This document shows, in pieces, positions 1 to 25,459 of a stretch of DNA of 64,000 nt (positions are counted from its first letter, which is position 1; the number at the start of each line of letters is the position of its first letter). The translations under genes and the position numbers were made by a program. Origin of the DNA: an uncultured Planctomycetales bacterium. Its GTDB lineage: Bacteria > Omnitrophota > Gorgyraeia > Zapsychrales > Fredricksoniimonadaceae. The stretch covers positions 6,398 to 70,397 of the forward strand of contig CAZFNI010000007.1 in assembly GCA_964520655.1 (NCBI GenBank), in the 5' to 3' direction. Below the pieces are notes generated by a model. It was not told the DNA's origin. It did no database searches and worked only from the letters and a program-made list of their open reading frames with translations.

Positions 1-361
1 ATATTCCACCCGCATGATTATAGGTGAAGAAGAAATCCTGACGGTAGGTCAAAAACCATAAGCCTCCCAGAAAAGCAGCCGCAGGCGAGAACAGGCGCGC
101 AAGGCAAAGGAAGATCCCTAAGCCGGCGCCGATATTCAGGATGATCTGTCCCAAAAGAATGCTGGGGATGTGCACCCCGAAGAGTTTGAACATCAGCCCG
201 TAATAGTAGGGCATGAGCGGTCCATAGACCCACCAGAAATCTTTGTAGGGCATTTCTCCGCGTAAGACAGCCGCGGCCGCATACAGGTCCCGGCCATGGT
301 CCCCCTGGGCAATGAAACTTTGGAAATTATGGTATGGCCAGCAGATGATGACGCCGGCCAT
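1..361 (-). CDS. Partial CDS (N-terminal ~120 aa; continues beyond window start) of a Family-A-like polytopic membrane protein, a putative GT-C glycosyltransferase. Start codon is the complement of 359..361.
   Basis: Manual minus-strand translation: MAGVIICWPYHNFQSFIAQGDHGRDLYAAAAVLRGEMPYKDFWWVYGPLMPYYYGLMFKLFGVHIPSILLGQIILNIGAGLG... This shares the D-x-G-R-[ED]-[LV]-Y ... YKD[LF] ... G-x-L-x-P-Y-[WY]-x-x-L-[LM]-F-K-[IL]-F-G signature of the + strand paralogs at 4930, 6761, 8576 and 12740. It is absent from the ORF track because there is no in-window stop. Confidence 0.55.
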   Translation of the reverse strand, partial: MAGVIICWPYHNFQSFIAQGDHGRDLYAAAAVLRGEMPYKDFWWVYGPLMPYYYGLMFKLFGVHIPSILLGQIILNIGAGLGIFLCLARLFSPAAAFLGGLWFLTYRQDFFFTYNHAGGI

Positions 362-532
362 AAAAGTGAGAGCGCAAAAAAAGATAAAACGGATGTTAGG
401 GGAGCTAAACACGGGGACATTTTAGTGGGAAAAGCCGGGGGCGTCAAGAAAGCGCTTGCAGAAATAATATGATCCAGCACTTGTTTTATTGTTGGACAGT
501 AGTAAACTTTAATTAGCATTTATAAAAAGATT

Positions 533-2980
533 ATGAAAACGCGCGCTGCCTACATAATGATGGTTATGCTGCTTCTGGGTGCGGGTTTCTTTTTTTGCCG
601 GCCGGCGATCGCGGATATTTATTACGCTGATCCTTCCGGCCATTTTGATGCCAATGCCATGGGGGTCGGCAATACCGTCATCGAAACGCCATCGGCAACA
701 TCAGGGGATTGTTCATCTGAAACATATAGTTCGTGCCGGGCCTCCGCTACTCCCGTAAAATTGAATGTTCCCGCTTTCAATATTGCTGTTGGAACGCAGT
801 GCAAATATATCACCGTTAATAATGGAAAAACAGTTTTTATCCCGGCGAGGACATCCAATGAATGGAAGTCGTTCATGGATTGGGCGGGAAATCCGCTCAG
901 GAATGGCGGGCAAGTGGACCTCCATGGATGCAGCGACGGGATGTGGACGGTGTGGAGCGGGTGTTCTCCGGCCTGCGGACCGCTTGCCGGGACGCAGAAC
1001 CGCCTGTGCGTGTACACCTCCAATTGGAAAGGCAATAATTGCAGCGCGCTGGATGCCTGGGGCAGCTCCAGGGCCTGCGCGGATTATTCCACCTGTGTTT
1101 GCGCGGCGAAAGACGCCAATTCGACATTTTGCGCCGGATCCGACAGCGGCTTTACGGCCATGCCGCCGCCCGTCACCTATGTTAATTTAGGTGGCTGCGA
1201 CGGGACAAAGTGCCAGGCGGCCTGTGTGGCGAATTATCACACCATCGCAGGCGGCTGCGCGATCAATACCTGCGCGCCCCTGACGGCTAATGCGACGGCA
1301 TGTAATGCCCTGACGCCTCCTGCGCATAATCAAAGCTATACGCTTGTCGCCGCTTGTTCGGCCAGCCCCTGTTTGGCCACCTGCAACAGCGGATATTTTA
1401 GAGACGGTGCGGTTTGTAATATTACCCCAGTTTGCGGCGCCAGCCCGAATACTTGCAGTGCCGGGGCACCTTCAGGTTATGACGGTCCCAAAGCCTGCGG
1501 CGGCAGTGTAGAGAATTGGACGTGCAGCAGCGGTTCGGCTTCGATCGCTTGTACCAGCACAACAGCGGCCTGTCCGTCTTGCGGCGGTTCTGCTAACACT
1601 TGCGCTGTGGGATCACCGACATCCTATAACGCGGATGTTTGCGGCGGGACATCAACATGGACATGCGTCAGTGGTGCATTTTCACTAGGGTGCAGCAAGG
1701 CCAATGCCGCGTGTCCGACCTGCGGCGGCAGCAATAATACTTGCGGCGTGGGATCACCGGCGGGGTATAGTGCCGGGGTGTGCGGCGGGTCCGCCACTTG
1801 GAATTGTAATAATGGAGGTTATACTCAAGCCTGCAGCAATGGGAATGCTGCCTGTCCGATATGCGGGGCCAGCAATAATACCTGCAACTTGGGAAGTCCG
1901 TCGGGATATAGTGCCGGCGTATGTGATGGCTCTTCCTCCTGGACGTGCAGTAACGGGGGGTATAATACTAGTTGCGGTAACCCGAATCCTGCCAATCCGA
2001 CCTGCGGGGGCAGCAATAATACCTGCGGTATAGGAACGCCGTCGGGATATGCTCTTGGTGCCTGCGGCGGGTCAGCGACATGGACATGTTCCAATGCAAC
2101 GTGTACTCCTAAAGCATGTAGCAATCCCAACCCTGCCGTCCCGACTTGCGGAGGCAGCTCGAATACATGTGGGATTGGAACCCCATCGGGGTATAGTGCA
2201 GGCGGATGCGGCGGGTCAGCTACATGGTCTTGTGATAATTCATGGTGTTCATCGCAGTCTTGCAGTAATCCGAACGCGGCTTGTCCCGTTTGCGGCGGCA
2301 GTGCCAATACCTGTTCGACAGGTTCACCATCGGGGTATGATGGTCCAAAAGCATGCGGAGGACTTACGGAGAATTGGACGTGCACAAACGGCGGTAGTTC
2401 AACGGGCTGTACGAAAGTCACAGGGGCCTGCGCGGGATGCACGTTTAGCGGAACCTGGGGAGGTGGATGCTCGGGTTCAACATCCGCGGCGCATGGTGCG
2501 ACGGGGACTGCGACGGATAGCACCGGATCGGAAACTGGTTGGATCTCGGCAACGTGCAACAATGGGACATGGACCGGAGTCTCTTCCTACTGCCAGGGGC
2601 CCTATACATTGGGGGCGTATGGCAGCTGTTCGCCATGCCGGACACGCAGTCTGGGTGGCGGATCGGAAGGGACACGCTCGCGCTCCGTAACATGCTCTTA
2701 TGACGCGTGCACGGGCGATAATACAAGCATCCAATGCTGTATTGCTTCTGATTGTCCGGTTACGTGCGGCGATGGGTCCTGCAATGGGGAAACGATCGCT
2801 GGTTGCCCAGCAGATTGCGGTTATTATTATTGCGGCGATGGCAGTTGCAATGCCCCGGAGAACCCCGGCAATTGCCTTGGCGATTGTCCGACAAGTTGTG
2901 GTGACGGATATTGCGTGGGTAGTGAAGTTTGTGATGGCTGTATCGCTGATTGCGGAGCATGTCCGCCTCCTCCAGATTAA
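533..2980 (+). CDS. Secreted Cys-rich multi-repeat protein (815 aa). It has an N-terminal signal peptide, a thrombospondin-type-1-like module, about 8 tandem ~45-aa Cys-rich repeats and a C-terminal CGDGxC Cys-rich tail.
   Basis: Hydrophobic N-terminus MMVMLLLGAGFFF. TSR-like segment WTVWSGCSPACGPLAGTQNRLCVY (W-x-x-WS-x-CS-x-x-CG ... R-x-C). Repeats of the form CP-x-CGGS-x-NTC-x-x-GSPSGY-x-x-G-x-CGGS-x-TW-x-C. N-terminal region is paralogous to the next gene (CKYITVNNGKT[VL]FIPA). Confidence 0.8.
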   Translation: MKTRAAYIMMVMLLLGAGFFFCRPAIADIYYADPSGHFDANAMGVGNTVIETPSATSGDCSSETYSSCRASATPVKLNVPAFNIAVGTQCKYITVNNGKTVFIPARTSNEWKSFMDWAGNPLRNGGQVDLHGCSDGMWTVWSGCSPACGPLAGTQNRLCVYTSNWKGNNCSALDAWGSSRACADYSTCVCAAKDANSTFCAGSDSGFTAMPPPVTYVNLGGCDGTKCQAACVANYHTIAGGCAINTCAPLTANATACNALTPPAHNQSYTLVAACSASPCLATCNSGYFRDGAVCNITPVCGASPNTCSAGAPSGYDGPKACGGSVENWTCSSGSASIACTSTTAACPSCGGSANTCAVGSPTSYNADVCGGTSTWTCVSGAFSLGCSKANAACPTCGGSNNTCGVGSPAGYSAGVCGGSATWNCNNGGYTQACSNGNAACPICGASNNTCNLGSPSGYSAGVCDGSSSWTCSNGGYNTSCGNPNPANPTCGGSNNTCGIGTPSGYALGACGGSATWTCSNATCTPKACSNPNPAVPTCGGSSNTCGIGTPSGYSAGGCGGSATWSCDNSWCSSQSCSNPNAACPVCGGSANTCSTGSPSGYDGPKACGGLTENWTCTNGGSSTGCTKVTGACAGCTFSGTWGGGCSGSTSAAHGATGTATDSTGSETGWISATCNNGTWTGVSSYCQGPYTLGAYGSCSPCRTRSLGGGSEGTRSRSVTCSYDACTGDNTSIQCCIASDCPVTCGDGSCNGETIAGCPADCGYYYCGDGSCNAPENPGNCLGDCPTSCGDGYCVGSEVCDGCIADCGACPPPPD
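1424..2453 (+). repeat. About 8 tandem, protein-level-conserved ~135-nt (45-aa) Cys-rich repeat units inside CDS 533..2980.
   Basis: The translated motif C-P-x-C-G-G-S-x-N-T-C-x-x-G-S-P-S-G-Y ... C-G-G-S-x-T-W-x-C recurs 8 times. The DNA copies have diverged, so this is not a recent duplication. Confidence 0.6.
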
Positions 2981-3138
2981 GGATTTTCAGTTATTAGATC
3001 CCATCAATTATTTTTGATAACCATGTTGTTCTGGGTAGAACGAATGTATGTCTCTGCTGTTCTGGTTAAAAAGGCGTGATCAATTTTTAAAGTTTATAAA
3101 AGAAAGCGTTTGCCTAAAAAGTGGATTTGAGCCTTGAT

Positions 3139-3159
3139 TTTAGACTAGGAAGGTCTAAA
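3139..3159 (+). promoter_or_regulatory. Inverted repeat TTTAGAC-N7-GTCTAAA immediately upstream of the RBS of the second Cys-rich gene. Possible operator or promoter-proximal element.
   Basis: Perfect 7-bp inverted repeat read directly from the sequence, in an AT-rich 185-nt intergenic region, 12-20 nt upstream of AGGAG. Confidence 0.3.
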
Positions 3160-3180
3160 CTTTAAGTGCTAGGAGAAAAA

Positions 3181-4887
3181 ATGACAATGCGCACAATCAC
3201 AGTTTTATTAGTCATGCTGTTTTTGAGCGCGGCTGTTTTTTTTGTCAAAGACCTTCAGGCAACAATTATCTACGGCGACGATTCTCTGAATGCCCATACA
3301 GTTGAAGGTGACAGTGAAACCACGAGTACAGCTCCCGGCGCCGATCCTGAGCAAAACCCGACAGGGGACTGCTCACAGAATCCCAATAAATCCTGCAAAG
3401 CTTCAGCGACCCCGACAAAATTAGATTCTTGGGGAACGCCGTGCAAGTACATCACGGTCAATAATGGCAAGACTTTATTTATCCCCGCCAAGAGCATGGG
3501 GGAATGGAATAATTTTCTTTCCTGGGCATCAAGCAATAATGGGGGGACGGTTTCCTTAAATGATTGTGTCGACGGAACATGGTCAGGGTGGGGCGCTTGT
3601 GTGCCTAGTACCTGCGGCTTCGGTACAGAAACGCGGACCTGTGTGTATGCAAGTCCCTATAAAGGGAAAGACTGTAGTTTGCTTGATGGGGGCAACAGCA
3701 CCCGGCCATGCACAGATTATACGCTATGCACCTGCGGTTCAAATGATGCGAATTCATCGTTCTGTGCCGGCCAGGACATTAATTTCACGGCCATGCCTCC
3801 GCCAACGACATATGTGGAAGCTGGCGGTTGCGACGCGTCAACCAAATGCCAGGCGCAGTGCGGGGCGGCATATCATGTGATACCGGGCGGCTGCGCGTTG
3901 ACAACATATACCGGGACATATCCGGCGTGTCCATCCGGATGCGGGTATATGGGAGGCCCTGTGGCACCTTTAACGTGCACTCGCGATCATGATGGGGCCT
4001 CTGTGGCGGGCGCTTTTTGTGGCAATCAAAGTTGTCCGACAACAGCGCCGTGCTGTGCTGGCGTCATTGATTGTTTCGGCGTGTGCAACGGTGGCGCGGT
4101 CACTGATTGTGCGGGGACTTGCGGCGGCAGTGCGGTCACCGATTGCAACGGTGTTTGCGGTGGCGGTGCGCAGATTGATGTTTGCGGTGTCTGCGGCGGT
4201 AGCGGGAATACCTGTCCATGCGTGGGGGCAACGCCGTGCGGCAGCCCGGGGGCGTGTTATGCGGCGGATGCATGCGGCGTGTGCGGCGGTCCAGGGCCGG
4301 GTTGTACACCAAGTGCTCCGGTATGCGGGGCGCCTAATGTCACGGTATGCAGTCAATGTACAGATGGCTGCGGGATCACCTATGTGGATTGTAATGGATG
4401 TCTTGCTGAACCAGAGCCATGTTCAGGAGCAACGCCGTGCGGCAGCCCGGGGGCATGCTATGCGGCTGATGCGTGCGGTGTGTGCGGAGGGGATGGTTCA
4501 TCATGCGCGCCACCGCCTTGTGTCTATGATTGCAATGGCGTTTGCAACGGCGGCGCGGTCGTGGATAACTGTGGAGTTTGTGGTGGACCTGGTGGCTGTG
4601 GGGGCTGCGCGGGGACAGTGGATTGCAATGGTGTGTGCAATGGCGGCGCGGTCGTGGATAACTGCGGAGTTTGCGGTGGACCTGGTGGCTGCGGGGGTTG
4701 CGCGGGTACAGTGGATTGCAATGGTGTTTGTAACGGCGGCGCGGTCGTAGATGCCTGCGGTCAGTGCGGTGGAGACGGCAGCAGCTGTTGTGCCGGAGGA
4801 TCATTTGATTGCAATGGTGTCTGCAACGGTGGGGCGGTCTTAGATAATTGCGGCGTCTGCGGCGGCTCAGGCGGATGTGGGTATTGA
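3181..4887 (+). CDS. Secreted Cys-rich repeat protein. It has a signal peptide, a TSR-like module and ADAMTS-like CGVCGG repeats. The ORF track starts it at a GTG (3166); the ATG at 3181 with an AGGAG RBS is preferred.
   Basis: MTMRTITVLLVMLFLSAAVFF signal peptide. WSGWGACVPSTCGFGTETRTCVY fits the TSR1 consensus. Repeated D-C-N-G-V-C-N-G-G-A-V-x-D-x-C-G-V-C-G-G-[PD]-G units. N-terminal domain is paralogous to gene 533..2980. Confidence 0.8.
   Translation: MTMRTITVLLVMLFLSAAVFFVKDLQATIIYGDDSLNAHTVEGDSETTSTAPGADPEQNPTGDCSQNPNKSCKASATPTKLDSWGTPCKYITVNNGKTLFIPAKSMGEWNNFLSWASSNNGGTVSLNDCVDGTWSGWGACVPSTCGFGTETRTCVYASPYKGKDCSLLDGGNSTRPCTDYTLCTCGSNDANSSFCAGQDINFTAMPPPTTYVEAGGCDASTKCQAQCGAAYHVIPGGCALTTYTGTYPACPSGCGYMGGPVAPLTCTRDHDGASVAGAFCGNQSCPTTAPCCAGVIDCFGVCNGGAVTDCAGTCGGSAVTDCNGVCGGGAQIDVCGVCGGSGNTCPCVGATPCGSPGACYAADACGVCGGPGPGCTPSAPVCGAPNVTVCSQCTDGCGITYVDCNGCLAEPEPCSGATPCGSPGACYAADACGVCGGDGSSCAPPPCVYDCNGVCNGGAVVDNCGVCGGPGGCGGCAGTVDCNGVCNGGAVVDNCGVCGGPGGCGGCAGTVDCNGVCNGGAVVDACGQCGGDGSSCCAGGSFDCNGVCNGGAVLDNCGVCGGSGGCGY
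4528..4881 (+). repeat. Tandem 93-nt in-frame repeats (about 3.8 copies; copies 1 and 2 are ~90% identical) encoding the DCNGVCNGGAVVDNCGVCGGPGGCGGCAGTV units.
   Basis: Units start at 4528, 4621, 4714 and about 4804. Copies 1-2 differ at only a few wobble positions. A separate ~65-nt direct repeat occurs at 4231..4295 and 4429..4493 (ATPCGSPGACYAADACGVCGG). Confidence 0.85.
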
Positions 4888-4929
4888 TATCTATTGAATC
4901 CATTTTAGCATTGATATCGCTTTAAATAT

Positions 4930-6756
4930 GTGCAGAATAAAAGCATGTCCGTGCGCAGAAAAGATGTCCTCATTGACGGCTTTTTCCTGTCGATCTTCCT
5001 TCTAATCTTCGTATCCTTCACCTGGGGCAAATGGATCCATCCGATCGTTGATTTCGGCCGAGAGGTTTATATCCCCTGGGCGATCGATCAGGGGGCCGTT
5101 CTCTACAAAGACCTGGCATTTCTTTTCGGTGCCTTGCCTCCTTACTGGAATGCTCTGCTATTTAAGATCTTTGGCGCGTCTTTGCAGACGATCCATGTTG
5201 TGGATGTGTTGGTAGTTTTTCTTTGCGCCGCATTGATCTATCGTTTTTTCTACTGCACCATGAACCGCTTGACAGCCTTCATGGTCACCCTCTCTTTTCT
5301 TATCCTGTTTGTCATGGATTTTTATTATTATGAATCCAATATGGCGTTTTTATCGCCATTCACGCACAGTTATTTTTACGCGTTCCTTTTTGTATTAGCG
5401 GCGGTCAATATCTGGCAATGTTTTCTCATGCGTCCAAGCAGGGCCTGGATATTTTTTTTAGGGATTTGCGTCGGCGGGGTTGTTGTATCACGGCTGGAGA
5501 TCGCGGCAGCATTCTTCGTGGCATTGTTGATCGGGTTTGCCTTTTATCTCCAGCGGTTAAAACCAGGATCACGGCAAACGCTGTATTATATGGGGTGTTT
5601 TATCGGGGGATTATTGACCCCGATCGCTTTGTTCTGGGCGTATTTCTTAATGTATTTACCGCCCTTACCCGCGTTTCTTTCCATCATTGGGTATAATCCT
5701 CAATGGCGTGAGGTAGGGGATCTGTATTTTTATCAATTCTTGGGAGGGTGGAACAACTGGGAGTTAAATGTGCTCTGGATGATCCGCAATTTGCTGGTTT
5801 ATGCGGCGCTGTATGCTTCATTTCATCTGATGCTGATCGCTCGTTTAAGCTTCAGTAAGAAAGAATGGCTGAAAGGTGTTTTCTCCTTCGCGATCTTTTG
5901 TATGGTCTACGGTGGGGTCGCGTTCTATATCAGTGATATATATGCCCGGGGTGTGTTTCGAGGCGCGATCCCGGTAGTGGCGGCGTTGATCGGGATCAGC
6001 CTGTTCAATATTTGCCAGAACAAAGAATGTGCCTGCCGCGACAGGCATTTGTCAATTGTGGTTTTGGCTGTCTTCGCGTTCTTGCTGATGTTCAAGGTCC
6101 CATTACAGTTGACCTTGCAGGACTATGCGCTGATCTACGGGATGTTTGGGGTGTTGATGTTCGTTGCCGGATGTGTGTATTATCTGCCGGAAAGATATCA
6201 ACAGTATCCAGGCGGGAGGAATTGGGTTGCGTTATTAGTTTGCGCGCTGCTGGTGCTGGTCATGGTGCGCGTCGGGATCGTTTCATGGGGAGGGTTATCC
6301 AGCAAGAAAACACTGGTTGGGAGAGGGGAAAATGTGCTATGGACGTTTGATAGTCCCGCGCCTTTTGGTTCCGGCGGCAGCGTGAAAAGTTTTCTGGACT
6401 GGTCCCGGGAACACTTTGCCCCTGAAGATACGTTTGTTGTTTTGCCGGAAGGAATAATGCTCAACTTTTTGACGGGGCATCGGATCACCGGCCGGCATGT
6501 CACATATATGCCGGCGGAAGTAACGACTTTTGGTGAAGCCAGCATGCTTCAAGAACTAAAAATGTCCCCGCCGGATTATGTGGTGGTTGTCGTCAAGCAG
6601 ACAAATGCCTATGGAGGACTGGACCTGGGCGTGAATTATTTAAATGATGTGTATAGATGGGTAAAGGATAACTATACCGTAGTATGGAGGTCGGGGAGCA
6701 AGAAGAAAGATAGTTTCCTGATGTCAGTGTATCAGAAAAAAGAGCGGAAGAGGTAG
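4930..6756 (+). CDS. Family A-1: polytopic membrane protein, putative GT-C-fold glycosyltransferase (ArnT/PMT-like first-loop motif), with a ~150-aa conserved C-terminal non-membrane domain.
   Basis: 608 aa with many hydrophobic helices. GKWIHPIVDFGREVYIPWAIDQGAVLYKDLAFLFGALPPYWNALLFKIFG resembles ArnT DE-x-RYAE ... YFEKP ... YW. C-terminal motif VVLPEGIMLNFLTGHRITGRHVTYMPAE is shared with the three paralogs. Confidence 0.75.
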   Translation: MQNKSMSVRRKDVLIDGFFLSIFLLIFVSFTWGKWIHPIVDFGREVYIPWAIDQGAVLYKDLAFLFGALPPYWNALLFKIFGASLQTIHVVDVLVVFLCAALIYRFFYCTMNRLTAFMVTLSFLILFVMDFYYYESNMAFLSPFTHSYFYAFLFVLAAVNIWQCFLMRPSRAWIFFLGICVGGVVVSRLEIAAAFFVALLIGFAFYLQRLKPGSRQTLYYMGCFIGGLLTPIALFWAYFLMYLPPLPAFLSIIGYNPQWREVGDLYFYQFLGGWNNWELNVLWMIRNLLVYAALYASFHLMLIARLSFSKKEWLKGVFSFAIFCMVYGGVAFYISDIYARGVFRGAIPVVAALIGISLFNICQNKECACRDRHLSIVVLAVFAFLLMFKVPLQLTLQDYALIYGMFGVLMFVAGCVYYLPERYQQYPGGRNWVALLVCALLVLVMVRVGIVSWGGLSSKKTLVGRGENVLWTFDSPAPFGSGGSVKSFLDWSREHFAPEDTFVVLPEGIMLNFLTGHRITGRHVTYMPAEVTTFGEASMLQELKMSPPDYVVVVVKQTNAYGGLDLGVNYLNDVYRWVKDNYTVVWRSGSKKKDSFLMSVYQKKERKR

Positions 6757-6760
6757 GCCC

Positions 6761-8566
6761 ATGTCGCCGCGAAAAACAGGATTGTTGTGGGATGCCGCGG
6801 TCCTTTTGACCGTAGCCGTTGTGTTTATCATATTGACTGGCGGAAAGTGGACCCATCCGGTCAATGATTTTGGCCGGGAAGTCTACATCCCCTGGGCGAT
6901 CGATCAGGGGGCGGTCCTTTATAAAGACCTGGCTTATCTTTTTGGTGCTTTGCCGCCCTGCTTAAATGCGCTGCTGTTTAAATTCTTTGGAGCTTCCTTA
7001 CAGACGATCCAACAATTTGATCTTTTGGTCGTCGCCCTGATGACCGCGTTGATCTACCGATTTTTCTATCTTGTCTGGTGCCGGTTATCCGCATTAGCTG
7101 CTGCGGCATCATTTTTAGTTCTTTTTGCTTTTGATTATCTGCCGTTTGGTTCAAACATGTATTATTTAAGCCCCTATTCTCACAGTTATTTCTATGCTGG
7201 ATTGTTTACCCTCGCGATCTTTAACACACTGGAGAAGTATTTTAAGGATCAGCGTAAGCGCTGGCTTTTATTGACAGGGGTTCTTTTAGGTGCGGCATTG
7301 TTGTCCCGTCTGGAGTTATTTATCATCATATTCATCGCATCGATGTTCGGGCTGGTGATCGATGCCTGTGCCAAGAACATGGCGCTGCGGGAAAGGTTCC
7401 GGAACTGGATGCTGGTGTTGGCGGGGGTTACGATCGCGGTCCTGCCGTTTTTGATATATTTCTCGATGCATATGCCCGTGTCAAAAGCGTTAATGTCGAT
7501 CGTCGGGTTTAATCCACAGTGGCAGCAGGTGTCTGGCATCTATTTGTATAGAAATCTGGCCGGGCTTATCCATGTTCCGATGAACCTGCAGATGTTGGGC
7601 ATCGTTCTGGGAGCATACGCGGCGTTGTATTTAGGATTGAACGCGCTTGGTCAGGCGTTTTTGCTGCGGCGCGCGGGGAGGGATCATTTTCAGGTATTTG
7701 TTCTGGGGGCGTATTTCTTTACGGTTTATGGGGCTGTGCTGTATGCGGTCAATCACGGCTGGGCGCATGAGATCTTTCGTGGAGCGGCCGTTTGTGTGAT
7801 CTTAGCCGGTATTCTGGCGTATAGAAAAATGCGTCAAGCGCAGGATGCGGATAGCCGCACCAGGGCGCTGCTGATGCTGATGTTCTGTCTTTTTGCCGGG
7901 CTGATGCTGTTTAAAGTGCCGCTGTCGATGAAATTATTCAATTACGCGCTTTTTTACGGCATGCCCGCGGGGCTTGTCACAGTTATCGTCTGGGTCAAGG
8001 TGGTCCCGCAGATCATGCAGGAACGCTATAAGTCGGGCGCTGTCAGTCAGCTGTTTGTCTTATTCTTGCTTGTCAGCGTCGGAATCCAGGTGTTTGGCGC
8101 GTCCATCCATGGGCTTGGGGCGAGACAAAAGAAAGTCGGTCTGGGTCCCAATGCGCTGTGGGCGTTGGACAGGACTTCACCGTGGGGCGCGGGTGATGAT
8201 GTGGATCTATTCCTGAAATGGGCCAAAGAAAATCTTAAGGCCGGCGAGCGCTTCGTGGTCCTGCCGGAAGGCATCATGCTGAACTTTTTAACGGGGCATA
8301 AGATCTCCGGCAGGCATTTAACGTTTATGCCGGCGGAGATGGTCACCTTTGGCGAGAAAAGCATGTTGGGGGCATTGACGGAAGATCCGCCGGAATACAT
8401 GGTGCTTGTCCATAAAAGCAATGCTGAATACGGAGGGATCGTCCTGGGGCAGAATTATGCGCTTGAGATAGTCGGTTGGTTGAAAGAACATTATCAGCGG
8501 GTATGGATCTCCCGGGAAAAAAGGCCGGGGAATTTTTCAATTGAGGTCTATCAACGAAGATCATGA
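6761..8566 (+). CDS. Family A-2 paralog (601 aa), putative GT-C membrane glycosyltransferase.
   Basis: Same N-terminal (GKWTHPVNDFGREVYIPWAIDQGAVLYKDLAYLFGALPP) and C-terminal (VVLPEGIMLNFLTGHKISGRHLTFMPAE) motifs as A-1. Confidence 0.75.
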   Translation: MSPRKTGLLWDAAVLLTVAVVFIILTGGKWTHPVNDFGREVYIPWAIDQGAVLYKDLAYLFGALPPCLNALLFKFFGASLQTIQQFDLLVVALMTALIYRFFYLVWCRLSALAAAASFLVLFAFDYLPFGSNMYYLSPYSHSYFYAGLFTLAIFNTLEKYFKDQRKRWLLLTGVLLGAALLSRLELFIIIFIASMFGLVIDACAKNMALRERFRNWMLVLAGVTIAVLPFLIYFSMHMPVSKALMSIVGFNPQWQQVSGIYLYRNLAGLIHVPMNLQMLGIVLGAYAALYLGLNALGQAFLLRRAGRDHFQVFVLGAYFFTVYGAVLYAVNHGWAHEIFRGAAVCVILAGILAYRKMRQAQDADSRTRALLMLMFCLFAGLMLFKVPLSMKLFNYALFYGMPAGLVTVIVWVKVVPQIMQERYKSGAVSQLFVLFLLVSVGIQVFGASIHGLGARQKKVGLGPNALWALDRTSPWGAGDDVDLFLKWAKENLKAGERFVVLPEGIMLNFLTGHKISGRHLTFMPAEMVTFGEKSMLGALTEDPPEYMVLVHKSNAEYGGIVLGQNYALEIVGWLKEHYQRVWISREKRPGNFSIEVYQRRS

Positions 8567-8575
8567 TAAAACGTA

Positions 8576-10387
8576 ATGGATAAGAATAAACGGGACATAG
8601 CCCTGGATGCGGCATTTATTCTGATGGTCTTGGGTGGATTTGTGGCCGTGACCTGGGGCCGGTGGGCTCATCCGATCATTGATTACGGCCGCGAGGTGTA
8701 TGTCCCCTGGCGTATCACCGCGGGGGAGGTCTTATATAAGGACCTGGCTTATCTGTTCGGTGCTTTTCCGCCCTATTGGAATGCGCTGCTTTTTAAAGTG
8801 TTCGGCCCATCGATCGCCACCTTGACGGGATTCAACACCCTCCTGGCCCTGGCGGATGTGTTCTTGGTGTACCGGTTCCTGCTTCTGTCCGCCGATCGCT
8901 TGACCGCGCTTTTGGGCGCGGCTGGTTTTTTATTGCTGGCGGTCTGCAATCTGCACATGGCCTACAATATGTATTATTTGGCCCCCTATTCGCATAATGC
9001 CGCGTATGCGGTCTTTTTTGTTTTGTGCGCGTTAAATGTGCTGCCGTCGTTGTTGCGGATATTGGAGCACAGGGCATTCTTTTTATTGGGGCTTTTTCTC
9101 GCTGGAGCGTTGTTATCGAGGCTGGAAATATTCCTGGCCGCGGCGCTGGCGATCTTTACGGCTTTAGGGTTGTATTTTTGGAAATATTCAGTACAAAAAA
9201 ATAAAGCGTTCGCTTATATCGGCACGGCGGTGGCAGGCATTTTCTTTCCGGTATTTGTGTTCTGGGTGTATTTTGTGGCACACTTGCCGCCCTTAGAAGC
9301 ACTTTTTTCTATTATAGGCTATAACCCTCAGTGGCGAGAGGTGGCCCAAACAACACTGTATGCCAAGCAATATGCGGCGTGGCGGGAGAATGTCACGCTG
9401 ATGGCCATGGCGTTGGGAGGCAGCATGTTATTGATCGTCGGCATTGAGATATGCTGCCGGGGCATGATGTTATGGCAAAAGAGCAAAGAGCGGTTGAAAG
9501 CACTGTTGATGTGCGGTCTTTCTGTGTTGTTATATACAGGGGTTCTATATGTTTGCACGGGTGAGAATGTGTATGATGTGTTTCGGGGGCAGATCATCCT
9601 TCAGATCGTATTGGTCGTTTTTTGTTATAAAAGATTCCAGTCTTCCACTGGATTGGAAGATAATATCAGAACATTGTGCCTTTGGGTGTTGTGTGCCTGG
9701 GGGCTTTTCATGCTGGGGAAGATCCCCTTAAAATGTGTTGTCCGGGGCAGCGGCTTGATCTACGGGATCCCGGCGATGCTGACAGCGGTCGTTCTTTTCG
9801 CGTATCTTCTGCCGCAGCGGGCGCAAAGGCTTTACGGCCAGGGGCGTATTGCGGCAATAGCGGCAGCGCTGCTGCTGACATTTTTGTTCTGTCGGGTGTT
9901 GGCGTCTTCGTTGAATAACTTGTCGCTGCGTTTGAAGGCTGTCGGTCAGGGAGCCAATGCATTGCGGACCATTGATTACCCATTGCCATTCGGGCTTGGG
10001 ACCGACATTGAGAAATTCCTTTCTTGGTCGCGGGATCATTTGGGGAACAATGACACCTATGTTGTCCTGCCCGAGGGGGTCATGCTCAATTTCCTGACCC
10101 GTCACCGGATAACGGGCCAGCACATCACCTTTATGCCGGCGGAACTGGCAACGTTCACGGAAGAACGTATGCTGGCAGGGTTGAAGGATGTTCCGCCTGA
10201 TTATGTGGTCATTGTGAATAAGGATAATACGGCTTACGGGGATATGGTTTTTGGGAAGAATTACGCGCCGCGTCTTTATCAGTGGGTCATGACGCGGTAT
10301 TCGCCGGTCTGGGATTCCAGGGTTATCCCCAACCGGTATGCAGGCATAACGGTCTTCAAACGTCAGGAAATACAGGGGCATGAATAG
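8576..10387 (+). CDS. Family A-3 paralog (603 aa), putative GT-C membrane glycosyltransferase.
   Basis: GRWAHPIIDYGREVYVPW ... YKDLAYLFGAFPPYWNALLFKVFG. C-terminal VVLPEGVMLNFLTRHRITGQHITFMPAE. Confidence 0.75.
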   Translation: MDKNKRDIALDAAFILMVLGGFVAVTWGRWAHPIIDYGREVYVPWRITAGEVLYKDLAYLFGAFPPYWNALLFKVFGPSIATLTGFNTLLALADVFLVYRFLLLSADRLTALLGAAGFLLLAVCNLHMAYNMYYLAPYSHNAAYAVFFVLCALNVLPSLLRILEHRAFFLLGLFLAGALLSRLEIFLAAALAIFTALGLYFWKYSVQKNKAFAYIGTAVAGIFFPVFVFWVYFVAHLPPLEALFSIIGYNPQWREVAQTTLYAKQYAAWRENVTLMAMALGGSMLLIVGIEICCRGMMLWQKSKERLKALLMCGLSVLLYTGVLYVCTGENVYDVFRGQIILQIVLVVFCYKRFQSSTGLEDNIRTLCLWVLCAWGLFMLGKIPLKCVVRGSGLIYGIPAMLTAVVLFAYLLPQRAQRLYGQGRIAAIAAALLLTFLFCRVLASSLNNLSLRLKAVGQGANALRTIDYPLPFGLGTDIEKFLSWSRDHLGNNDTYVVLPEGVMLNFLTRHRITGQHITFMPAELATFTEERMLAGLKDVPPDYVVIVNKDNTAYGDMVFGKNYAPRLYQWVMTRYSPVWDSRVIPNRYAGITVFKRQEIQGHE

Positions 10388-12743
10388 GAATTTAGTCACC
10401 GTCGGTGTCATTTCGTTTTCGGCCATCTTGTTCCAGATATGCGTCACGCGCATTCTGGCGGTGACCCTGTGGTATCATTTTGCTTTTCTGGTGATCTCGC
10501 TTTCGATGCTGGGGATGACGGCAGCCGCGATCGCCTGTTTTGTTTTTTGGCCGCGTGTCATAGAAACACAAAGCCGGCGGTATTTTATTATTTTTGCAGC
10601 CCTGTTCGCCTTGCTTGCGCCATTATCCGTTGCTGTTCATTTAAATATCAATTTTCAGGAAGTGGCGTTCAACACGGCCGGATTTTATGCGATCGCGATG
10701 CTCCAGCTGGTGTTTTTGGCGGCGGCGTTCTTCGCCGCAGGGATGGCGTTAAATATCATTTTGTTCAAAGAACAGGAACGGATCGGATTTGTCTATTTCT
10801 GTGATCTGATCGGCGCCGCGGCGGCAAGCCTTCTGGTCATGGCGCTGTTATATTGGGTCAGCCCTATCGCTGTTGTGTTTCTCATTTCATTTTTGTCCTT
10901 ATGGGCAGCCTATGTGCAGGCATCGCATCAGGGCTTACGCCTGGCGCTGCTTTTATCAGCGGGAGTGATGCTGGTATTATTCATCAACAATGACGCGTGG
11001 CATATCTTTAAGATCAGGGCCGTGAAAAGTTATGGGGAGAAAGCGTTCCAGGTGGAGGACAAACCTCTTTTGTTCGAGAAATGGTCGCCGTTCGCGCGTA
11101 CGACGGTGTACAGCCCGACCCGCCATGACAGCGGGACATTATCCATTGAGAATAATTCCGGCGCACCGGCGGCAATGTTCAAATATGACCCGATGCTTCC
11201 GCCAACCCAGCTGAGGACCAGGCTTTACGGTCTTCAGGAAATGGCTTTTGTCCTCAAGAAGAGCGATGAAGCCTTGATCATCGGCTCAGGCGGAGGGAGG
11301 AATTTGCTGGCAGCGTTGCTCTCGGGTCAGGGCCATATCACGGCGGTTGAGGTCAATCCGGTGACTGCGGAGATCGTTACAAAGGATTTTTCGGATTATA
11401 TCGGCCGCATCTTTGAGGATTCCCGCGTTACTTTTCATGTGCAGGAGGGGAGGAATTTCATTGCCCGTACCCAACAGTTGTACGATGTGATCAATATCTC
11501 CATGGTTGAGAGCTGGGGGAATCAGGCCGCGGCCAGCAATTCGTATATTTTTACCGAGAACACCTTGTACACCAGAGAAGCGGTCTGGGATTATGTGCGT
11601 CATTTAAACCCGCAGGGGATACTGAGCATCACCCGGTATGATGATTTTGATGAAGGCTTGCGTTTAGTGAACACGATGATCGACACGCTGCAGGAGAGAG
11701 GGGAAAAAGACCTTAAGGACCAGTTCGTCGTTGTGTTGGGCTACAAGTATCGGGGATCGGTGGGGCTAGCCAATGTCATGTACAAACGCGGCGGATTCAC
11801 CAGGGAAGATGTGGCCAGGATCAGGGATTTTACATCCCGTAACGGTTTTAAGATCATTTACGCGCCGTTCTTGCCGGAGGCAGCAATGAGCGCGCTTCCC
11901 CGGTCGGAATTTTACCGCAAGCTTATCCTCGGGAAAGACAGGAGGGATGATCTGGTGGCGCGGTATCCCCGGATCATCAGCCCATCCACGGACGACAAAC
12001 CATTTTTTTTCTACATGGACCGATTTAAGGATTCATTTGTGTTCAATGCCAATGAACATGCGGCCCGAAGACGCGCTATCCCGATATTGTATGGATTGTG
12101 TGCGGGGGTAGCGGTGCTTAGCCTGATCATGGTCTTTCTGCCGTTGTTAGTTTACCGCCGTACACGTTTAAGCACGCTGTTGCAATGCCGGGTGAATTTG
12201 CTTTATTTTGCAGCGCTGGGAACGGGGTTTATGTTCATTGAGTTATCCCTGATACAGCGACTGACTGTTTTTCTGGGGCATCCCATTTACGCCTTGATCG
12301 TGGTGTTGACCGCCTTGCTGTTAAGCAGCGCTATGGGGAGCTTCTTCTCAGGAAGGATCAAGCCTCTAATGAAAGAGAAGGTGCTTAAGGTTGTGCTGCT
12401 GGCGATCGCCCTCTGTGGCGTTCTTGTGGGGGGAATTATGTTCGATCACCTGGCGCGCTGGATGTATTTACAGCAGCCGCTGCGTGTCATCGTTGCTGTC
12501 GCGACCATCGTTCCTTTGGGGGCTATGCTGGGGATGTGTTTCCCGCTGGGTGTTCATTTGCTGCAGGAGAAGGACAGGCAGCTGATCGTATGGGCGTGGG
12601 GTATCAACGGGATATTTTCTGTCTTAGGATCGGTGCTGGCCATGGTGCTGGCACTGCATATGGGATTTAAAGCCGTGTTCTTGATCGGAGCGGCATGTTA
12701 TTGCGGGGCATGGTTGGCGGTCAAACGCATGGGGAATCAATGA
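10380..12743 (+). CDS. Spermidine-synthase-like (aminopropyl/methyl-transferase fold) domain flanked by N- and C-terminal multi-TM domains (787 aa).
   Basis: The central segment IIGSGGGRNLLAALLSGQGHITAVEVNPVTAEIV ... DVINISMVESWGNQAAASNSYIFTENTLYTREAV matches the spermine/spermidine synthase fold. Hydrophobic N- and C-terminal regions are consistent with the known fused spermidine-synthase-like membrane proteins. Confidence 0.65.
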   Translation: MNRNLVTVGVISFSAILFQICVTRILAVTLWYHFAFLVISLSMLGMTAAAIACFVFWPRVIETQSRRYFIIFAALFALLAPLSVAVHLNINFQEVAFNTAGFYAIAMLQLVFLAAAFFAAGMALNIILFKEQERIGFVYFCDLIGAAAASLLVMALLYWVSPIAVVFLISFLSLWAAYVQASHQGLRLALLLSAGVMLVLFINNDAWHIFKIRAVKSYGEKAFQVEDKPLLFEKWSPFARTTVYSPTRHDSGTLSIENNSGAPAAMFKYDPMLPPTQLRTRLYGLQEMAFVLKKSDEALIIGSGGGRNLLAALLSGQGHITAVEVNPVTAEIVTKDFSDYIGRIFEDSRVTFHVQEGRNFIARTQQLYDVINISMVESWGNQAAASNSYIFTENTLYTREAVWDYVRHLNPQGILSITRYDDFDEGLRLVNTMIDTLQERGEKDLKDQFVVVLGYKYRGSVGLANVMYKRGGFTREDVARIRDFTSRNGFKIIYAPFLPEAAMSALPRSEFYRKLILGKDRRDDLVARYPRIISPSTDDKPFFFYMDRFKDSFVFNANEHAARRRAIPILYGLCAGVAVLSLIMVFLPLLVYRRTRLSTLLQCRVNLLYFAALGTGFMFIELSLIQRLTVFLGHPIYALIVVLTALLLSSAMGSFFSGRIKPLMKEKVLKVVLLAIALCGVLVGGIMFDHLARWMYLQQPLRVIVAVATIVPLGAMLGMCFPLGVHLLQEKDRQLIVWAWGINGIFSVLGSVLAMVLALHMGFKAVFLIGAACYCGAWLAVKRMGNQ

Positions 12744-14566
12744 GATTAAACATGGCAAAGATCGACAGACGAGTTGTGCAAGATGTCATTGTGCTGATGA
12801 TCGTCATGATGTATTTCATCGCAAGGACATGGGGGAAATGGGCCCACCCGATCACGGATTTCGGACGGGAATTGTATATCCCTTGGCGCTTAAGCGAAGG
12901 GCAAATATTATACAGGGACATTGCCTATTTGTTTGGTGCATTTCCCCCCTATTGGAACGCGCTGATGTTCAAGCTGTTCTCCCCGTCGCTGGCCATGTTG
13001 ATAACGATCGACCTTGTGGCGGCTTGTTTATACACAGCATTGATCTACCGCTTTTTATATGTCACAACCAACCGGTCAACAGCATTCATGGGAAGTTTGG
13101 GTTTCATGATGGTGTTCGTCTGTAATTTTATGGGGTATAACATGTATTATCTAACCCCCTATTCTCACAGCAATTTTTATGCCGTTCTCTTTTCTTTGGC
13201 CGCAATGAACCTGTTCCATCTTCTTTCGCAACACTTTAAAAAAAGGATGGTATTCGCGATCGGCCTGTTATTAGGCGGGGTGCTCTTATCACGTCTAGAG
13301 ATATTCCTGACGATCATTATCCCTGTTATTGTTGGTATAGCGATGTTGGTGGATCGACGCGGCAGCAAGGCAGTGATCGCACGGAGTTATGCTGTATTTC
13401 TTTTAGGGCTTGTGATCCCCGTTATCTGTGCATGGGGTTATTTCTTGCAGTATTTCCCAGCGGCACAGGCGCTGCAGAACATCGTGGGATATAATCCCCA
13501 TTGGCAGAAAATATCGGGTGTCTATTTGTACGCAAAACAATATCTCGGCTGGGAAAGGAATGCCTCTCTAACGGCAAAGGCAATAGCCGCGGGCTTTATA
13601 TTTTATGGAGCCATTGATCTGTTGTGCCGGGGTATTCGCGGGGGTCTTGACAATAAAGGGGCATATCGGTTTGCGGGGATGATCTTGCCGGGTTTTTGTA
13701 TGTATGCCTTGATCGTTTATCTGTGTGTGACGCCTTATGTGTACGATTCTTTTCGGGGAGCGGCCATGGCGGCTGTCGTGCTGGCTGCAGCTCTTTTCCG
13801 TCGACTGAAAGGTGTTCCGTCCTTGCCGCAGAGTATTCCAGGTCTGATACCGCTGCTGGTGTGTTGTTTCTGGGCAGTCTTGATGTTGTTCAAGGTGCCG
13901 CTGATGATCACCTTCCGGGGATACGGGCTGGTCTATGGGCTGCCGGCATTTCTGATGGGGGTGGTCCTTTTTGTGTATTTTGTCCCACAGCAGATGCAGC
14001 GGAAATATGGTCAGGGACAGTTGTCGCGGCGACTGGTATCCGCGTTGCTGCTGTTGATATGCGTGATGATATATTCTTCTTCATTCAAAAATTTGTCATC
14101 GAGGAACAAGGCTGTTGGTTCTGGGAATAATATTGTTGTTTATCTGGACAAGAAGTCCTCTTACGGACTGGCGGAAGATATTGAGCGTTTTCTCCTCTGG
14201 GCCAAGGATCATTTGGGCCCCAGGGACACGTATGTTGTTCTTCCTGAGGGAGTAATGCTCAATTTTTTCACCAGGCATGCGATCACCGGTCCGCATGTCA
14301 GCTTTATGCCCGCGGAAATGGCCACGTATGGGCAAGAAGAACTGTTATTGTCGTTAGAACGTGATCCGCCGGACTATGTGCTCATTGTCCACAAAGATAA
14401 TCGCGTGTATCCCGGGATGATATTGGGTAGAAATTATGCGGTAAGCATTGTAGACTGGGTCAAAAGAAATTACCGTTCTGTCTGGGATTCGCGCGAGAAT
14501 AAAAAACGTTTTGTCGGGATCGAAGTGTTTCAACGCGAGGGGATAAATGATCAAGATCTTTATTAG
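12740..14566 (+). CDS. Family A-4 paralog, putative GT-C membrane glycosyltransferase. The ORF track starts at 12695; the ATG at 12740, overlapping the upstream stop as ATGA, is preferred.
   Basis: GKWAHPITDFGRELYIPWRLSEGQILYRDIAYLFGAFPPYWNALMFKLF. C-terminal VVLPEGVMLNFFTRHAITGPHVSFMPAE. The distance from the start to the GKW motif matches the paralogs. Confidence 0.7.
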   Translation: MRLNMAKIDRRVVQDVIVLMIVMMYFIARTWGKWAHPITDFGRELYIPWRLSEGQILYRDIAYLFGAFPPYWNALMFKLFSPSLAMLITIDLVAACLYTALIYRFLYVTTNRSTAFMGSLGFMMVFVCNFMGYNMYYLTPYSHSNFYAVLFSLAAMNLFHLLSQHFKKRMVFAIGLLLGGVLLSRLEIFLTIIIPVIVGIAMLVDRRGSKAVIARSYAVFLLGLVIPVICAWGYFLQYFPAAQALQNIVGYNPHWQKISGVYLYAKQYLGWERNASLTAKAIAAGFIFYGAIDLLCRGIRGGLDNKGAYRFAGMILPGFCMYALIVYLCVTPYVYDSFRGAAMAAVVLAAALFRRLKGVPSLPQSIPGLIPLLVCCFWAVLMLFKVPLMITFRGYGLVYGLPAFLMGVVLFVYFVPQQMQRKYGQGQLSRRLVSALLLLICVMIYSSSFKNLSSRNKAVGSGNNIVVYLDKKSSYGLAEDIERFLLWAKDHLGPRDTYVVLPEGVMLNFFTRHAITGPHVSFMPAEMATYGQEELLLSLERDPPDYVLIVHKDNRVYPGMILGRNYAVSIVDWVKRNYRSVWDSRENKKRFVGIEVFQREGINDQDLY

Positions 14567-16529: not shown

Positions 16530-17505
16530 AGGTTTTCCTGTGATGGTGCTGGCCTTTGTTGCGGCGGCCCTAGCCACGGTCATTGTATTGTTGGTCTGGA
16601 TGCTTTTGCCCAAGCAGCGGTTCGTGCATACGCGCTATGACAAGGATCTGGGATGGGTTAATATCCCGAATTTAAATATTTCCGATGCGTTCGGAAAAGG
16701 CGTTTCTATCAGGACGAACGCTCAGGCTTTCCGTAATGACAGGGAATTCTCCATCGCTGTTCCGGCGGGGAAAAAACGGGTCATTTGCCTGGGGGATTCT
16801 TATACCTTTGCCTATGGGGTTGATAATGACCATGCCTGGTGCCAGCAGCTGGCGTTGCTGGACCCGCGCATCGAAAGCGTCAACATGGGGCAGGGGGCCT
16901 ACGGCATTGATCAGGCTTACTTGTGGTACAAACGAGACGGCCTGCCGTTGGACCATCATCTGCAGGTGTTCGCCGTCATTTATGATGACTTTAACAGATT
17001 CGGTAAAAGGTTCCTTGGTTACGAGAAGCCGGTTCTGGAGTTGCACGGAGGGAATTTGACGGTAGGGAATATTCCTGTCCCCAAGCAGTCAGTCTTGCAG
17101 CGGCGGATGGGGCAGATCATGGGAACATTGTATCAGTCCTCTAAGGTTAGCAGATCACAGCAGCGTCGGCTGGCGCTGGCTGTTTTTGAAGATTTGGATA
17201 AGATCAATAAGGGTAAAGGCGGCCGTTTGGCGGTCGTGTATCTACCGACCTATTTCGCGGATATGGGGCATAACAGCAACCGGGAGCTGCGCGCCTTTCT
17301 CAATGATGAACTTTTTAAAAGAGGGATCCCTTTTATCGATCTGACGGACGATTTCGCGCGGCTGCCAAAAGCACAGATCAGGGCGATGTATAATATCAAC
17401 GATCAGAAAGGCGGACATTATACGGAAATGGGGAATGCGTTCGTTGCAAAACTGCTTTTACCGCGATTGTCTGTGCTAATGGAGCAGCAGGGGATAGAGA
17501 GGTAG
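16504..17505 (+). CDS. SGNH/GDSL-family hydrolase (esterase or acyl-group hydrolase) with an N-terminal membrane anchor. The start may be downstream, at about 16540-16543.
   Basis: Block I motif VICLGDSYTFAYGV (GDS). A hydrophobic anchor VMVLAFVAAALATVIVLLVWMLL. It overlaps the upstream gene by 26 nt if the 16504 start is used. Confidence 0.6.
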   Translation: MPPSTRPHKGFPVMVLAFVAAALATVIVLLVWMLLPKQRFVHTRYDKDLGWVNIPNLNISDAFGKGVSIRTNAQAFRNDREFSIAVPAGKKRVICLGDSYTFAYGVDNDHAWCQQLALLDPRIESVNMGQGAYGIDQAYLWYKRDGLPLDHHLQVFAVIYDDFNRFGKRFLGYEKPVLELHGGNLTVGNIPVPKQSVLQRRMGQIMGTLYQSSKVSRSQQRRLALAVFEDLDKINKGKGGRLAVVYLPTYFADMGHNSNRELRAFLNDELFKRGIPFIDLTDDFARLPKAQIRAMYNINDQKGGHYTEMGNAFVAKLLLPRLSVLMEQQGIER

Positions 17506-17515
17506 TTTGGCTGAT

Positions 17516-19788: not shown

Positions 19789-19867
19789 GCCATCGCGAAA
19801 GAGTGTTGCCATGGCCTTGTGTTGTCTGCTAGTATGGGGGCCTGTAATTACCCACTAAAGATATATC

Positions 19868-23196: not shown

Positions 23197-23240
23197 AGAA
23201 AAATTCAAGCAAATTTTTTGAGAATAGGTATAATGCCCCT

Positions 23241-24662: not shown

Positions 24663-24675
24663 GCCGGAGGTTGTG

Positions 24676-25452: not shown

Positions 25453-25459
25453 TCTTCCT

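Follow-up and report, generated by a model that had tools for sequence, protein, structure and literature searches.

The thrombospondin type-1 repeat (TSR, or TSP1) has been described as an adhesion domain of animals and apicomplexans (PMC3417536). Here we analyse two adjacent genes, ORF1 and ORF2 (open reading frames 1 and 2), each of which encodes one such repeat in a bacterium. They lie near the start of a stretch of 64,000 nucleotides, hereafter the window, taken from contig CAZFNI010000007.1 (positions 6,398 to 70,397, forward strand) of assembly GCA_964520655.1, an uncultured Planctomycetales bacterium placed by GTDB in the Omnitrophota, and are followed by a long array of genes for predicted membrane proteins, including putative glycosyltransferases of the C fold type (GT-C). 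With the known TSRs of thrombospondin-1, properdin, F-spondin, UNC5, the ADAMTS proteins and TRAP/CSP, both share a module of ~55 amino acids (aa) with W-x-x-W and C-x3-C-G; they differ in having a single repeat per protein, a bacterial host and flanking domains without a Pfam family. A preliminary description, made from the sequence alone, had read the W-x-x-W segments as TSRs and suggested that the two proteins are glycosylated by the neighbouring transferases.

Two described glycosylation systems come closest to this suggestion. In Streptococcus mutans, the Pgf cluster encodes the GT-A enzyme PgfS, the YfhO-type GT-Cs PgfM1 and PgfM2 and the adhesins Cnm, CnaB and CbpA, which are O-glycosylated on Ser/Thr-rich disordered regions (PMC12041528). 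As with ORF1 and ORF2, whose surface location is predicted, the surface proteins are encoded inside a YfhO-type GT-C cluster. There are also differences: the window holds about 15 GT-Cs in three families compared with two Pgf enzymes, its family 2 glycosyltransferase (GT2) lies off-strand and outside the array and scores 71 bits against PgfS (cutoff 500), the family B protein starting at 20713 scores 31 bits against PgfM1 (cutoff 1400) and only at its C-terminus, and the long Ser/Thr-rich disordered acceptor region of Pgf targets is only rudimentary in ORF1 and ORF2. The second system is that of the DPY19 tryptophan C-mannosyltransferases, which act on WxxW peptides in the unfolded state (PMC10154233). 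Common to DPY19 and the window are the GT-C fold, modelled for family A of the array, and the acceptor sequon WxxW, found in both TSRs.

Divergent thrombospondin repeats in two paralogous proteins

Each protein contains exactly one WxxW motif, located in the segment WTVWSGCSPACGPLAGTQNRLCVY in ORF1 (aa 138-161) and in the segment WSGWGACVPSTCGFGTETRTCVY in ORF2. The surrounding TSRs span aa 133-190 of ORF1 (WTVW..., 929..1102) and aa 129-185 of ORF2 (WSGW..., 3565..3735); unless stated otherwise, coordinates are those of the window and features lie on its forward strand. When the whole proteins were scanned with Pfam, the TSR went undetected, with zero matches at E<=10. When the segments were scanned in isolation, the ~57-aa piece of ORF2 reached 21.8 bits with TSP_1 (PF00090; E 2e-4), just above the gathering cutoff of 21.6, and the ORF1 piece stayed under it at 15.8 bits. 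With TSP1_spondin (PF19028, cutoff 41), the isolated segments scored 22.8 (ORF2) and 18.4 bits (ORF1). The PF00090 search proposed in the preliminary description thus succeeds for the isolated ORF2 repeat and fails for that of ORF1 and for both whole proteins. Given that the whole-protein scan came back empty, a naive PF00090 test would have led to the false dismissal of a genuine domain.

Stronger evidence came from profiles. A two-sequence profile, built from the window proteins only, was searched with HMMER against 1.84 billion representative proteins and returned 73 matches, the best to a multi-TSR protein having an E-value of 6e-20. The matches restricted to profile positions ~73-130, i.e. 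to the W-segment, are long multi-repeat proteins, and all ten of these that were scanned proved to be genuine members of the TSP_1/TSP1_spondin type, with scores of up to 766 bits. A profile of 15 family sequences matched TSRs of solved structure, with thrombospondin-1 at 1e-20 and properdin, UNC5, BAI1, ADAMTS13, F-spondin, TRAP and CSP also among the matches, and every one of these alignments falls on the W-segment.

The same result was obtained with an independent hidden Markov model (HMM) made from a set of 67 canonical TSRs in which the ORF1/ORF2 family was not represented. It gave 25.6 bits for ORF1 and 26.4 bits for ORF2. When each segment was shuffled 2,000 times with its composition preserved (4,000 shuffles in total), the highest scores were 12.4 and 11.9 (means about -7 and -6, standard deviation 3-4). 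In the alignment, six cysteines line up with those of TSR2 and TSR3 of thrombospondin-1, and so do the C-x3-CG turn and the T/Q-x-R-x-C strand; the B strand holds one Arg, compared with two (RIRLC) in thrombospondin-1 TSR2. At the level of sequence, the isolated scans, the two profiles and the independent HMM confirm the preliminary reading of both W-segments as true TSRs, if divergent ones.

The two repeats differ in one further respect. The TSR of ORF2 fits the POFUT2 O-fucose pattern C-x2-3-[ST]-C-x2-G with 'CVPSTCGFG' (aa 140-148 of the 568-aa form); that of ORF1 misses it, having an Ala before the second Cys.

ORF1 (533..2980) encodes a modular, predicted secreted protein of 815 aa with ~11% Cys. 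Its paralogue ORF2 (3181..4887), also predicted to be secreted, has 13% Cys and a length of 568 aa if it begins at ATG 3181 or 566 aa if it begins at ATG 3187; public records use both of these starts, the ORF list opens the frame at GTG 3166, and an AGGAG at 3171-3175 precedes the recorded starts. Over the first ~250 aa the two proteins are 50% identical and beyond that they are unrelated; judged by this shared part, they are paralogues. The exact proteins are on record in NCBI assembly GCA_041910255.1 (contig JAYRRC010000016.1, 579 kb), and identical copies occur in a second assembly, on a 117-kb contig, and in one Logan run. As ORF2 is 100% identical in the second assembly, it offers no independent comparison. 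Eukaryotic contamination was considered as a source of the two genes and rejected, since the 579-kb contig carries tightly packed, overlapping genes on the same strand and the neighbours are bacterial (AsnB, Era, Nth, a PEP-CTERM protein).

Both proteins open with what reads as a cleavable-type signal peptide of 27 residues, ...RPAIA|DIYY in ORF1 (533..613), with a hydrophobic core and an A-x-A motif, and ...KDLQA|TIIY in ORF2 (3181..3261). The only transmembrane segment predicted in each is this N-terminal hydrophobic stretch (aa <=27 in ORF1), with none elsewhere in either protein, in agreement with their earlier description as secreted.

A rare three-module core with lineage-specific repeat tails

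From the conserved columns, the region shared by ORF1, ORF2 and their relatives is a core of ~190 aa made up of an N-domain, the TSR and a Cys-rich C-module; in ORF2 it spans aa 62-242. The N-domain (aa 58-132 of ORF1, 704..928; aa 62-128 of ORF2, 3364..3564) has the pattern 'C.YITVNNGKT.FIPA....EW..F..WA' and is conserved between the two proteins and in the relatives P0003, P0074 and P0075; in ORF1 a short linker separates it from the signal peptide. The C-module (aa 191-246 of ORF1, 1103..1270; aa 186-242 of ORF2, 3736..3906) is defined by columns invariant in ORF1, ORF2 and the ~220-aa relatives, 'FC.G.D..FT..PP..YV..CD..KCQA.C'. No family in Pfam or NCBIfam covers the N-domain, the C-module or either of the repeat types described below. 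In the search of the 1.84 billion representatives, the part of the profile that covers the N-domain weakly matches Flg_new (Listeria-Bacteroides) repeat proteins (P0039, P0044 and P0048, E 2e-5 to 6e-5), a likeness that we treat only as a lead.

Beyond the core each protein continues into its own Cys-rich tail. In ORF1 this consists of seven tandem repeats of ~47 aa (aa 299-630, 1427..2422), parsed from the sequence as 'P.CGGS.NTC..G.PSGY.AG.CGGS.TW.C', then a Cys-free stretch of 28 aa with 46% Ser/Thr (aa 647-674) and, at the C-terminus, three units of the type 'CGDG.C...E....C..DC' (2753..2977), also without a Pfam match. In ORF2 the tail is the CGVCGG repeat region (aa 291-568, 4051..4884), with seven units of the form 'DC.G.C.GGA..D.CG.CGG' or 'PCGSPGACYAADACGVCGG' and seven CGxCGG motifs in total. 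Both regions are also repetitive as DNA: ORF1 holds a tandem array of 141 bp x 2.4 (1714..2050), and the last four CGxCGG units of ORF2 form one of 93 bp x 3.6 (4528..4862). These arrays at the DNA level suggest a recent expansion of the repeats.

Each protein may contain a second, W-less TSR module, a possibility that we regard as unproven. ORF2 aa 243-286 (3907..4038) has the visual appearance of a degenerate TSR-like module, 'YTGTYPACPSGCGY...LTCTRDHDGASVAGAFC..SCP', with Y/T where a TSR has W, and ORF1 aa 690-726 resembles by eye a degenerate ADAMTS-type TSR. Pfam gives these two stretches no statistical support; a comparable module in the relative P0072 scores 17.2 bits with TSP1_ADAMTS (E 0.0065), under the cutoff.

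The preliminary description had compared the ORF2 repeats with the Cys-rich regions of ADAMTS proteins. That they are tandem repeats is clear. Their likeness to ADAMTS is weak: a search of the PDB with the repeat region gave a single match, the Cys-rich element of ADAMTS5 at E=0.029, and a search with a profile of the unit likewise gave ADAMTS5 as the sole match, again at E=0.029, over an aligned motif of 24-34 residues. ADAMTS13 chains in the PDB showed no match to the repeats at E<=10, nor did the Pfam ADAMTS_CR_2, ADAMTS_CR_3 and spacer models, whether with the whole region or with single units, so the proposed search with an ADAMTS Cys-rich model came back negative; the region matched no phage record either. 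Shared with ADAMTS is a motif of ~24 residues, D-x-C-G-V-C-G-G-x-G/N-S-x-C after C-[DN]-G ('GCDG..GS....D.CGVCGGD.S.C'), which there as in ORF2 occurs in one protein together with a TSR. However, ORF2 repeats the element seven times in tandem, the matched ADAMTS5 chain aligns at a single site, and ORF2 is without a metalloprotease, disintegrin or spacer domain. We therefore consider the resemblance to be real as a ~24-residue motif, with homology or membership in the ADAMTS family not established.

The ORF1/ORF2 family is extremely rare. A word-indexed search of 5.8 billion proteins with the N-terminal 292 aa of ORF2 found no match. Among 185,579 species genomes, a scan with a five-sequence alignment located only two loci, and a scan of the JGI metagenomes located one. 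Among the 1.84 billion representatives, the core relatives of full-length type are P0003, P0005, P0007, P0008, P0011, P0023 and P0072, most of them 160-380 aa long and the last 833 aa; a profile search added P0074 and P0075. All three core modules are present in P0003, P0074 and P0075 (215-222 aa), of which P0003 comes from a Candidatus Omnitrophota metagenome-assembled genome (MAG) and P0075 from a MAG labelled "uncultured Planctomycetales".

TSRs as such are uncommon in bacteria yet already present in databases. Small proteins with a signal peptide (P0019, P0025, P0047, P0052, P0053, P0059 and P0089) combine the same N-domain with a near-canonical TSR, and in other prokaryote-type proteins the repeat is joined to a pilin-type N_methyl, a cohesin, a CARDB or a PG_binding_1 domain. 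As in ORF1 and ORF2, an N-domain of the type 'FIP..T..EW..F' stands directly before the TSR in the proteins with a signal peptide. Unlike those of ORF1 and ORF2, the repeats of these prokaryotic proteins are near-canonical ('CS.SCGGGTQTRTCTNP') and are recognised by Pfam. The two window proteins form a deeper and rarer branch, set apart from these proteins by the additional C-module and the long Cys-rich repeat tails.

The glycosyltransferase array and its conservation

Beginning 43-58 bp past ORF2, a tightly packed array of ~45 kb on the same strand (4930..50445) encodes about 15 polytopic membrane proteins, which fall into three families of paralogues. Family A, recognised by paralogy, comprises proteins of ~600 aa (4930/4945..6756, 6761..8566, 8576..10387 and 12695..14566); family B, of ~830-865 aa, has YfhO matches (genes starting at 20713, 31113, 35905, 42359 and, in part, 17507); family C consists of further polytopic proteins (starting at 29062, 33454, 39895, 45284, 48298 and, in part, 47061). 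Interspersed are a spermine-synthase-like fused membrane protein with 16 transmembrane segments (10380..12743), a sulfatase/LtaS-like membrane enzyme, methyltransferases, an AsnB-type amidotransferase, FAD and GMC oxidoreductases and a short-chain dehydrogenase/reductase. We also observed a 501-aa protein (38397..39902) that joins a weak N-terminal GT2 match to a class I S-adenosylmethionine-dependent methyltransferase domain.

For family A, relatives carry PMT_2 (PF13231), and an AlphaFold model from a 26-sequence alignment has a mean predicted local distance difference test score (pLDDT) of 92 and a predicted template modelling score (pTM) of 0.92. In Foldseek the top matches of this model are STT3 (STT3B), AglB and PglB, followed by ArnT, AftA, ALG3 and Pmt4; the protein has the polytopic GT-C fold, and its first extracytoplasmic loop carries a conserved acidic motif. 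Judged by this model, the family A neighbours are GT-C enzymes. Family B has Pfam YfhO matches confined to its C-terminus; apart from these, neither family B nor family C has relatives that are solved or covered by Pfam, and profiles of all three families found no match among PDB sequences. The earlier assignment of the downstream membrane proteins to GT-C is thus upheld through the PMT_2 relatives and fold model of family A and the YfhO C-terminus of family B.

Other parts of the earlier picture change. The GT2 (50876..51598), described as Dol-P-Man-synthase-like and nearby, appears from its matches to be of the polyprenyl-phosphate-sugar-synthase type, its best NCBIfam matches being PgfS, PpgS, AglJ and a Dol-P-hexose transferase, all far under the equivalog cutoffs; it is encoded on the opposite strand, past the end of the array and amid housekeeping genes. 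The comparison of the transferases with DPY19 finds no Pfam Dpy19 match in the cluster proteins at E<=0.01. In essence the earlier picture of GT-Cs accompanied by a polyprenyl-phosphate-sugar synthase is correct, but its likening to DPY19 is not. Nor do ORF1 and ORF2 strictly head the cluster, as just upstream lies a divergent gene for a PMT_2-like GT-C of 517-518 aa, whose 5' end occupies 1..361 on the reverse strand and which continues past the window start (locus L001, 8273..9829, reverse strand; PMT_2 24.4 bits against a gathering cutoff of 26.1). Taken together, the array looks like a machine that may build or decorate an extracytoplasmic glycopolymer from polyprenyl-phosphate sugars.

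Farther upstream of ORF1, locus L001 encodes a polytopic protein, a PEP-CTERM protein, a radical-SAM enzyme and an HTTM protein. The PEP-CTERM protein (257 aa, 5604..6380 of L001, reverse strand) lies 3.6 kb upstream of ORF1 and suggests that the host has an exosortase system and a diderm envelope. HTTM proteins, which are vitamin-K-dependent gamma-carboxylase-like, occur on both sides, at 56005..57462 of the window and at 2897..4249 of L001, both on the forward strand.

The link between TSR proteins and GT-Cs is not conserved in any relative examined. Seen from the TSR side, the three closest core relatives (L003, L005 and L006) have no GT-C array alongside. They share instead a conserved run consisting of an MGDG-synthase-like glycosyltransferase, a lipid-A-type acyltransferase, a 222-aa GT2, a 221-aa protein with a weak TonB_C match and the TSR protein (L003 6664..12291; L005 3576..7584; L006 6659..10669), followed in L003 by an APS kinase and a sulfotransferase. 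The run around these ~220-aa relatives may represent a (sulfo)glycolipid context. Thus, both lineages place the TSR family amid glyco-related genes. Of the distant relatives with N-domain and TSR, P0019 adjoins the type IV pilus genes PilB, PilC and pseudopilin, and P0086 is encoded directly 3' of a Shufflon_N/Peptidase_S74 gene for a PilV-like pilus-tip adhesin (L017 4798..6875). The L017 contig is conjugative-plasmid-like, and its genes for a relaxase, a type IV coupling protein and RepA would place this TSR protein on a conjugative element.

Seen from the family A side, no TSR protein was found near the family A genes of L011, L012, L013, L014, L015 and L019. In L011, three of these genes in tandem follow a secreted VWA/Big_7 protein and adjoin Tad pilus genes (1..4677); on the independent contig L014 they adjoin a Flp/Tad locus (442..9709). 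Family A is found with nucleotide-sugar genes in L013, stands alone in L015 and comes after an Rpe-like gene in L019. What does recur is a pair of genes, the first for family A and the next for a sulfatase/LtaS-like membrane enzyme, found in the window (12695..16529), L011 (11836..15314), L012 and L019 (415..4211). Its recurrence on unrelated contigs suggests that the two enzymes may work as a conserved module, with an envelope glycolipid or glycan as their target.

Possible roles of the two proteins

With moderate confidence, we read ORF1 and ORF2 as adhesin- or matrix-type binding proteins that are exported and combine a modular build with many disulfides. Their TSR would bind a ligand, and the two are probably co-expressed with the glycosylation locus. 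The host would be of Gram-negative type, the family being nearest to MAGs of the Omnitrophota and the Planctomycetes-Verrucomicrobia-Chlamydiae (PVC) group, and export would proceed by the Sec pathway. To the rare ~190-aa core each protein has added tandem Cys-rich repeats of its own lineage, which appear to be still duplicating in the DNA. Outside the cytoplasmic membrane the proteins would act in binding, the TSR engaging a ligand as in eukaryotic TSR proteins; we infer this from the biology of TSRs and from other prokaryotic TSR proteins, whose contexts are of the pilus or adhesin type. An adhesive role is hinted at by the fusions to N_methyl, cohesin and CARDB, the pilus genes beside P0019 and the position of P0086 after a PilV-like gene. 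Transcription together with the surrounding extracytoplasmic GT-C locus is suggested by the shared strand, the gap of 43-58 bp and the lack of a terminator-like site in it. Promoter and terminator scans performed at chance, terminator-like sites being no commoner than in shuffled sequence, with none in the intergenic gaps.

Several observations weigh against this reading. The relatives found beside pilus genes are distant ones, with only the N-domain and TSR in common. Neither protein has a recognisable C-terminal transmembrane segment, lipobox, PEP-CTERM or similar anchoring signal, and both may be surface-bound, released or periplasmic. An AlphaFold model of the core from the two-paralogue alignment has a pLDDT of 33, and its fold is unreadable. 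Finally, a protein with more than 60 cysteines would require an oxidising compartment and disulfide machinery.

The next alternative, possible though on our estimate unlikely, is that ORF1 and ORF2 are acceptors that the neighbouring GT-Cs would O- (or N-)glycosylate in the periplasm from polyprenyl-phosphate sugars, in a Pgf-like manner. The argument for such a modification is one of gene adjacency: GT-C genes flank the pair on both sides, the nearest family A gene only 43-58 bp away. The enzymes themselves are suggestive, since protein glycosyltransferases (Pmt4, AglB, STT3B, PglB) are among the top structural matches of family A, whose relatives carry PMT_2, and since family B has the YfhO C-terminus, its member at 20713 weakly matching PgfM1/PgfM2, and PgfS is the best match of the GT2; in the Pgf cluster such enzymes are encoded with their adhesin substrates (PMC12041528). 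A secreted protein likewise precedes the three tandem family A genes of L011, the small TSR relatives adjoin glycosyl- and sulfotransferase genes, and possible acceptor regions exist in ORF1, as the Ser/Thr-rich stretch at aa 647-674, and in ORF2, as a short linker near the N-terminus that is rich in S/T. However, these regions are short beside those of Pgf substrates, and N-x-S/T sequons are no commoner than composition predicts (in ORF1, 14 against about 13). The adjacency is conserved neither from the side of the TSR relatives nor from that of family A, the pairing of family A with the LtaS-like enzyme points to an envelope glycolipid or glycan as the target, and ~15 GT-Cs with an AsnB-type amidotransferase, oxidoreductases and methyltransferases fit the assembly of a polymer better than the decoration of a protein.

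Such an envelope product would also allow a different relationship between the genes, which we think rather doubtful. ORF1 and ORF2 could be non-catalytic, lectin-like or scaffold partners that bind, organise or anchor a glycopolymer or glycolipid made by the GT-Cs. The pairing of family A with the LtaS-like enzyme is consistent with a polymer of this kind, the TSR family stands within glyco-related gene sets in both lineages (the GT-C array here, the gene set of L003 there), and TSRs of eukaryotes mediate protein-protein as well as protein-carbohydrate adhesion (PMC3417536). The synteny of the small relatives, on the other hand, lies amid housekeeping genes and may be mere lineage-conserved gene order.

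Stated as a general claim, that co-encoded GT-Cs glycosylate bacterial TSR proteins in the periplasm, with C-glycosylation of the WxxW Trp as its extreme version, the proposal strikes us as very unlikely. It is about equally unlikely that the adjacency is incidental and the TSR genes an unrelated, recently expanded pair of surface-protein genes: adjacency is conserved in no relative examined, a 207-bp AT-rich gap precedes ORF2 and a separate divergent promoter region precedes ORF1, but GT-C genes lie on both sides and the 43-58 bp before the first family A gene contain no terminator-like site. Least probable of all is that a cluster GT-C, as a bacterial counterpart of DPY19, C-glycosylates the first Trp of the WxxW. 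In favour of this, the motif of both TSRs is invariant across the five closest family members, GT-Cs and a polyprenyl-phosphate-sugar-synthase-like GT2 are at hand, and a Sec-translocated chain also passes through the unfolded state in which WxxW peptides are DPY19 acceptors (PMC10154233). Against it, the Dpy19 search of the cluster proteins was negative (the fold model covering family A only), the papers retrieved contained no report of prokaryotic C-mannosylation, and the conservation of the tryptophans can be explained without a modification, as they have a structural role in all TSRs.

We believe that the value of this locus lies in the discovery of a domain, with no new mechanism demonstrated. 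If TSR glycosylation by co-encoded GT-Cs were nevertheless true, it would be the first prokaryotic system of this kind and perhaps an evolutionary forerunner or an analogue of the DPY19 and POFUT2 quality-control modifications of eukaryotic TSRs. The TSR itself is known and bacterial TSR proteins were already in databases; what is new is a deep and rare branch with an undescribed three-module core, together with its embedding in an exceptionally dense GT-C array. Furthermore, the locus illustrates how TSR-like domains in Cys-rich proteins escape annotation when whole proteins are scanned with Pfam and NCBIfam.

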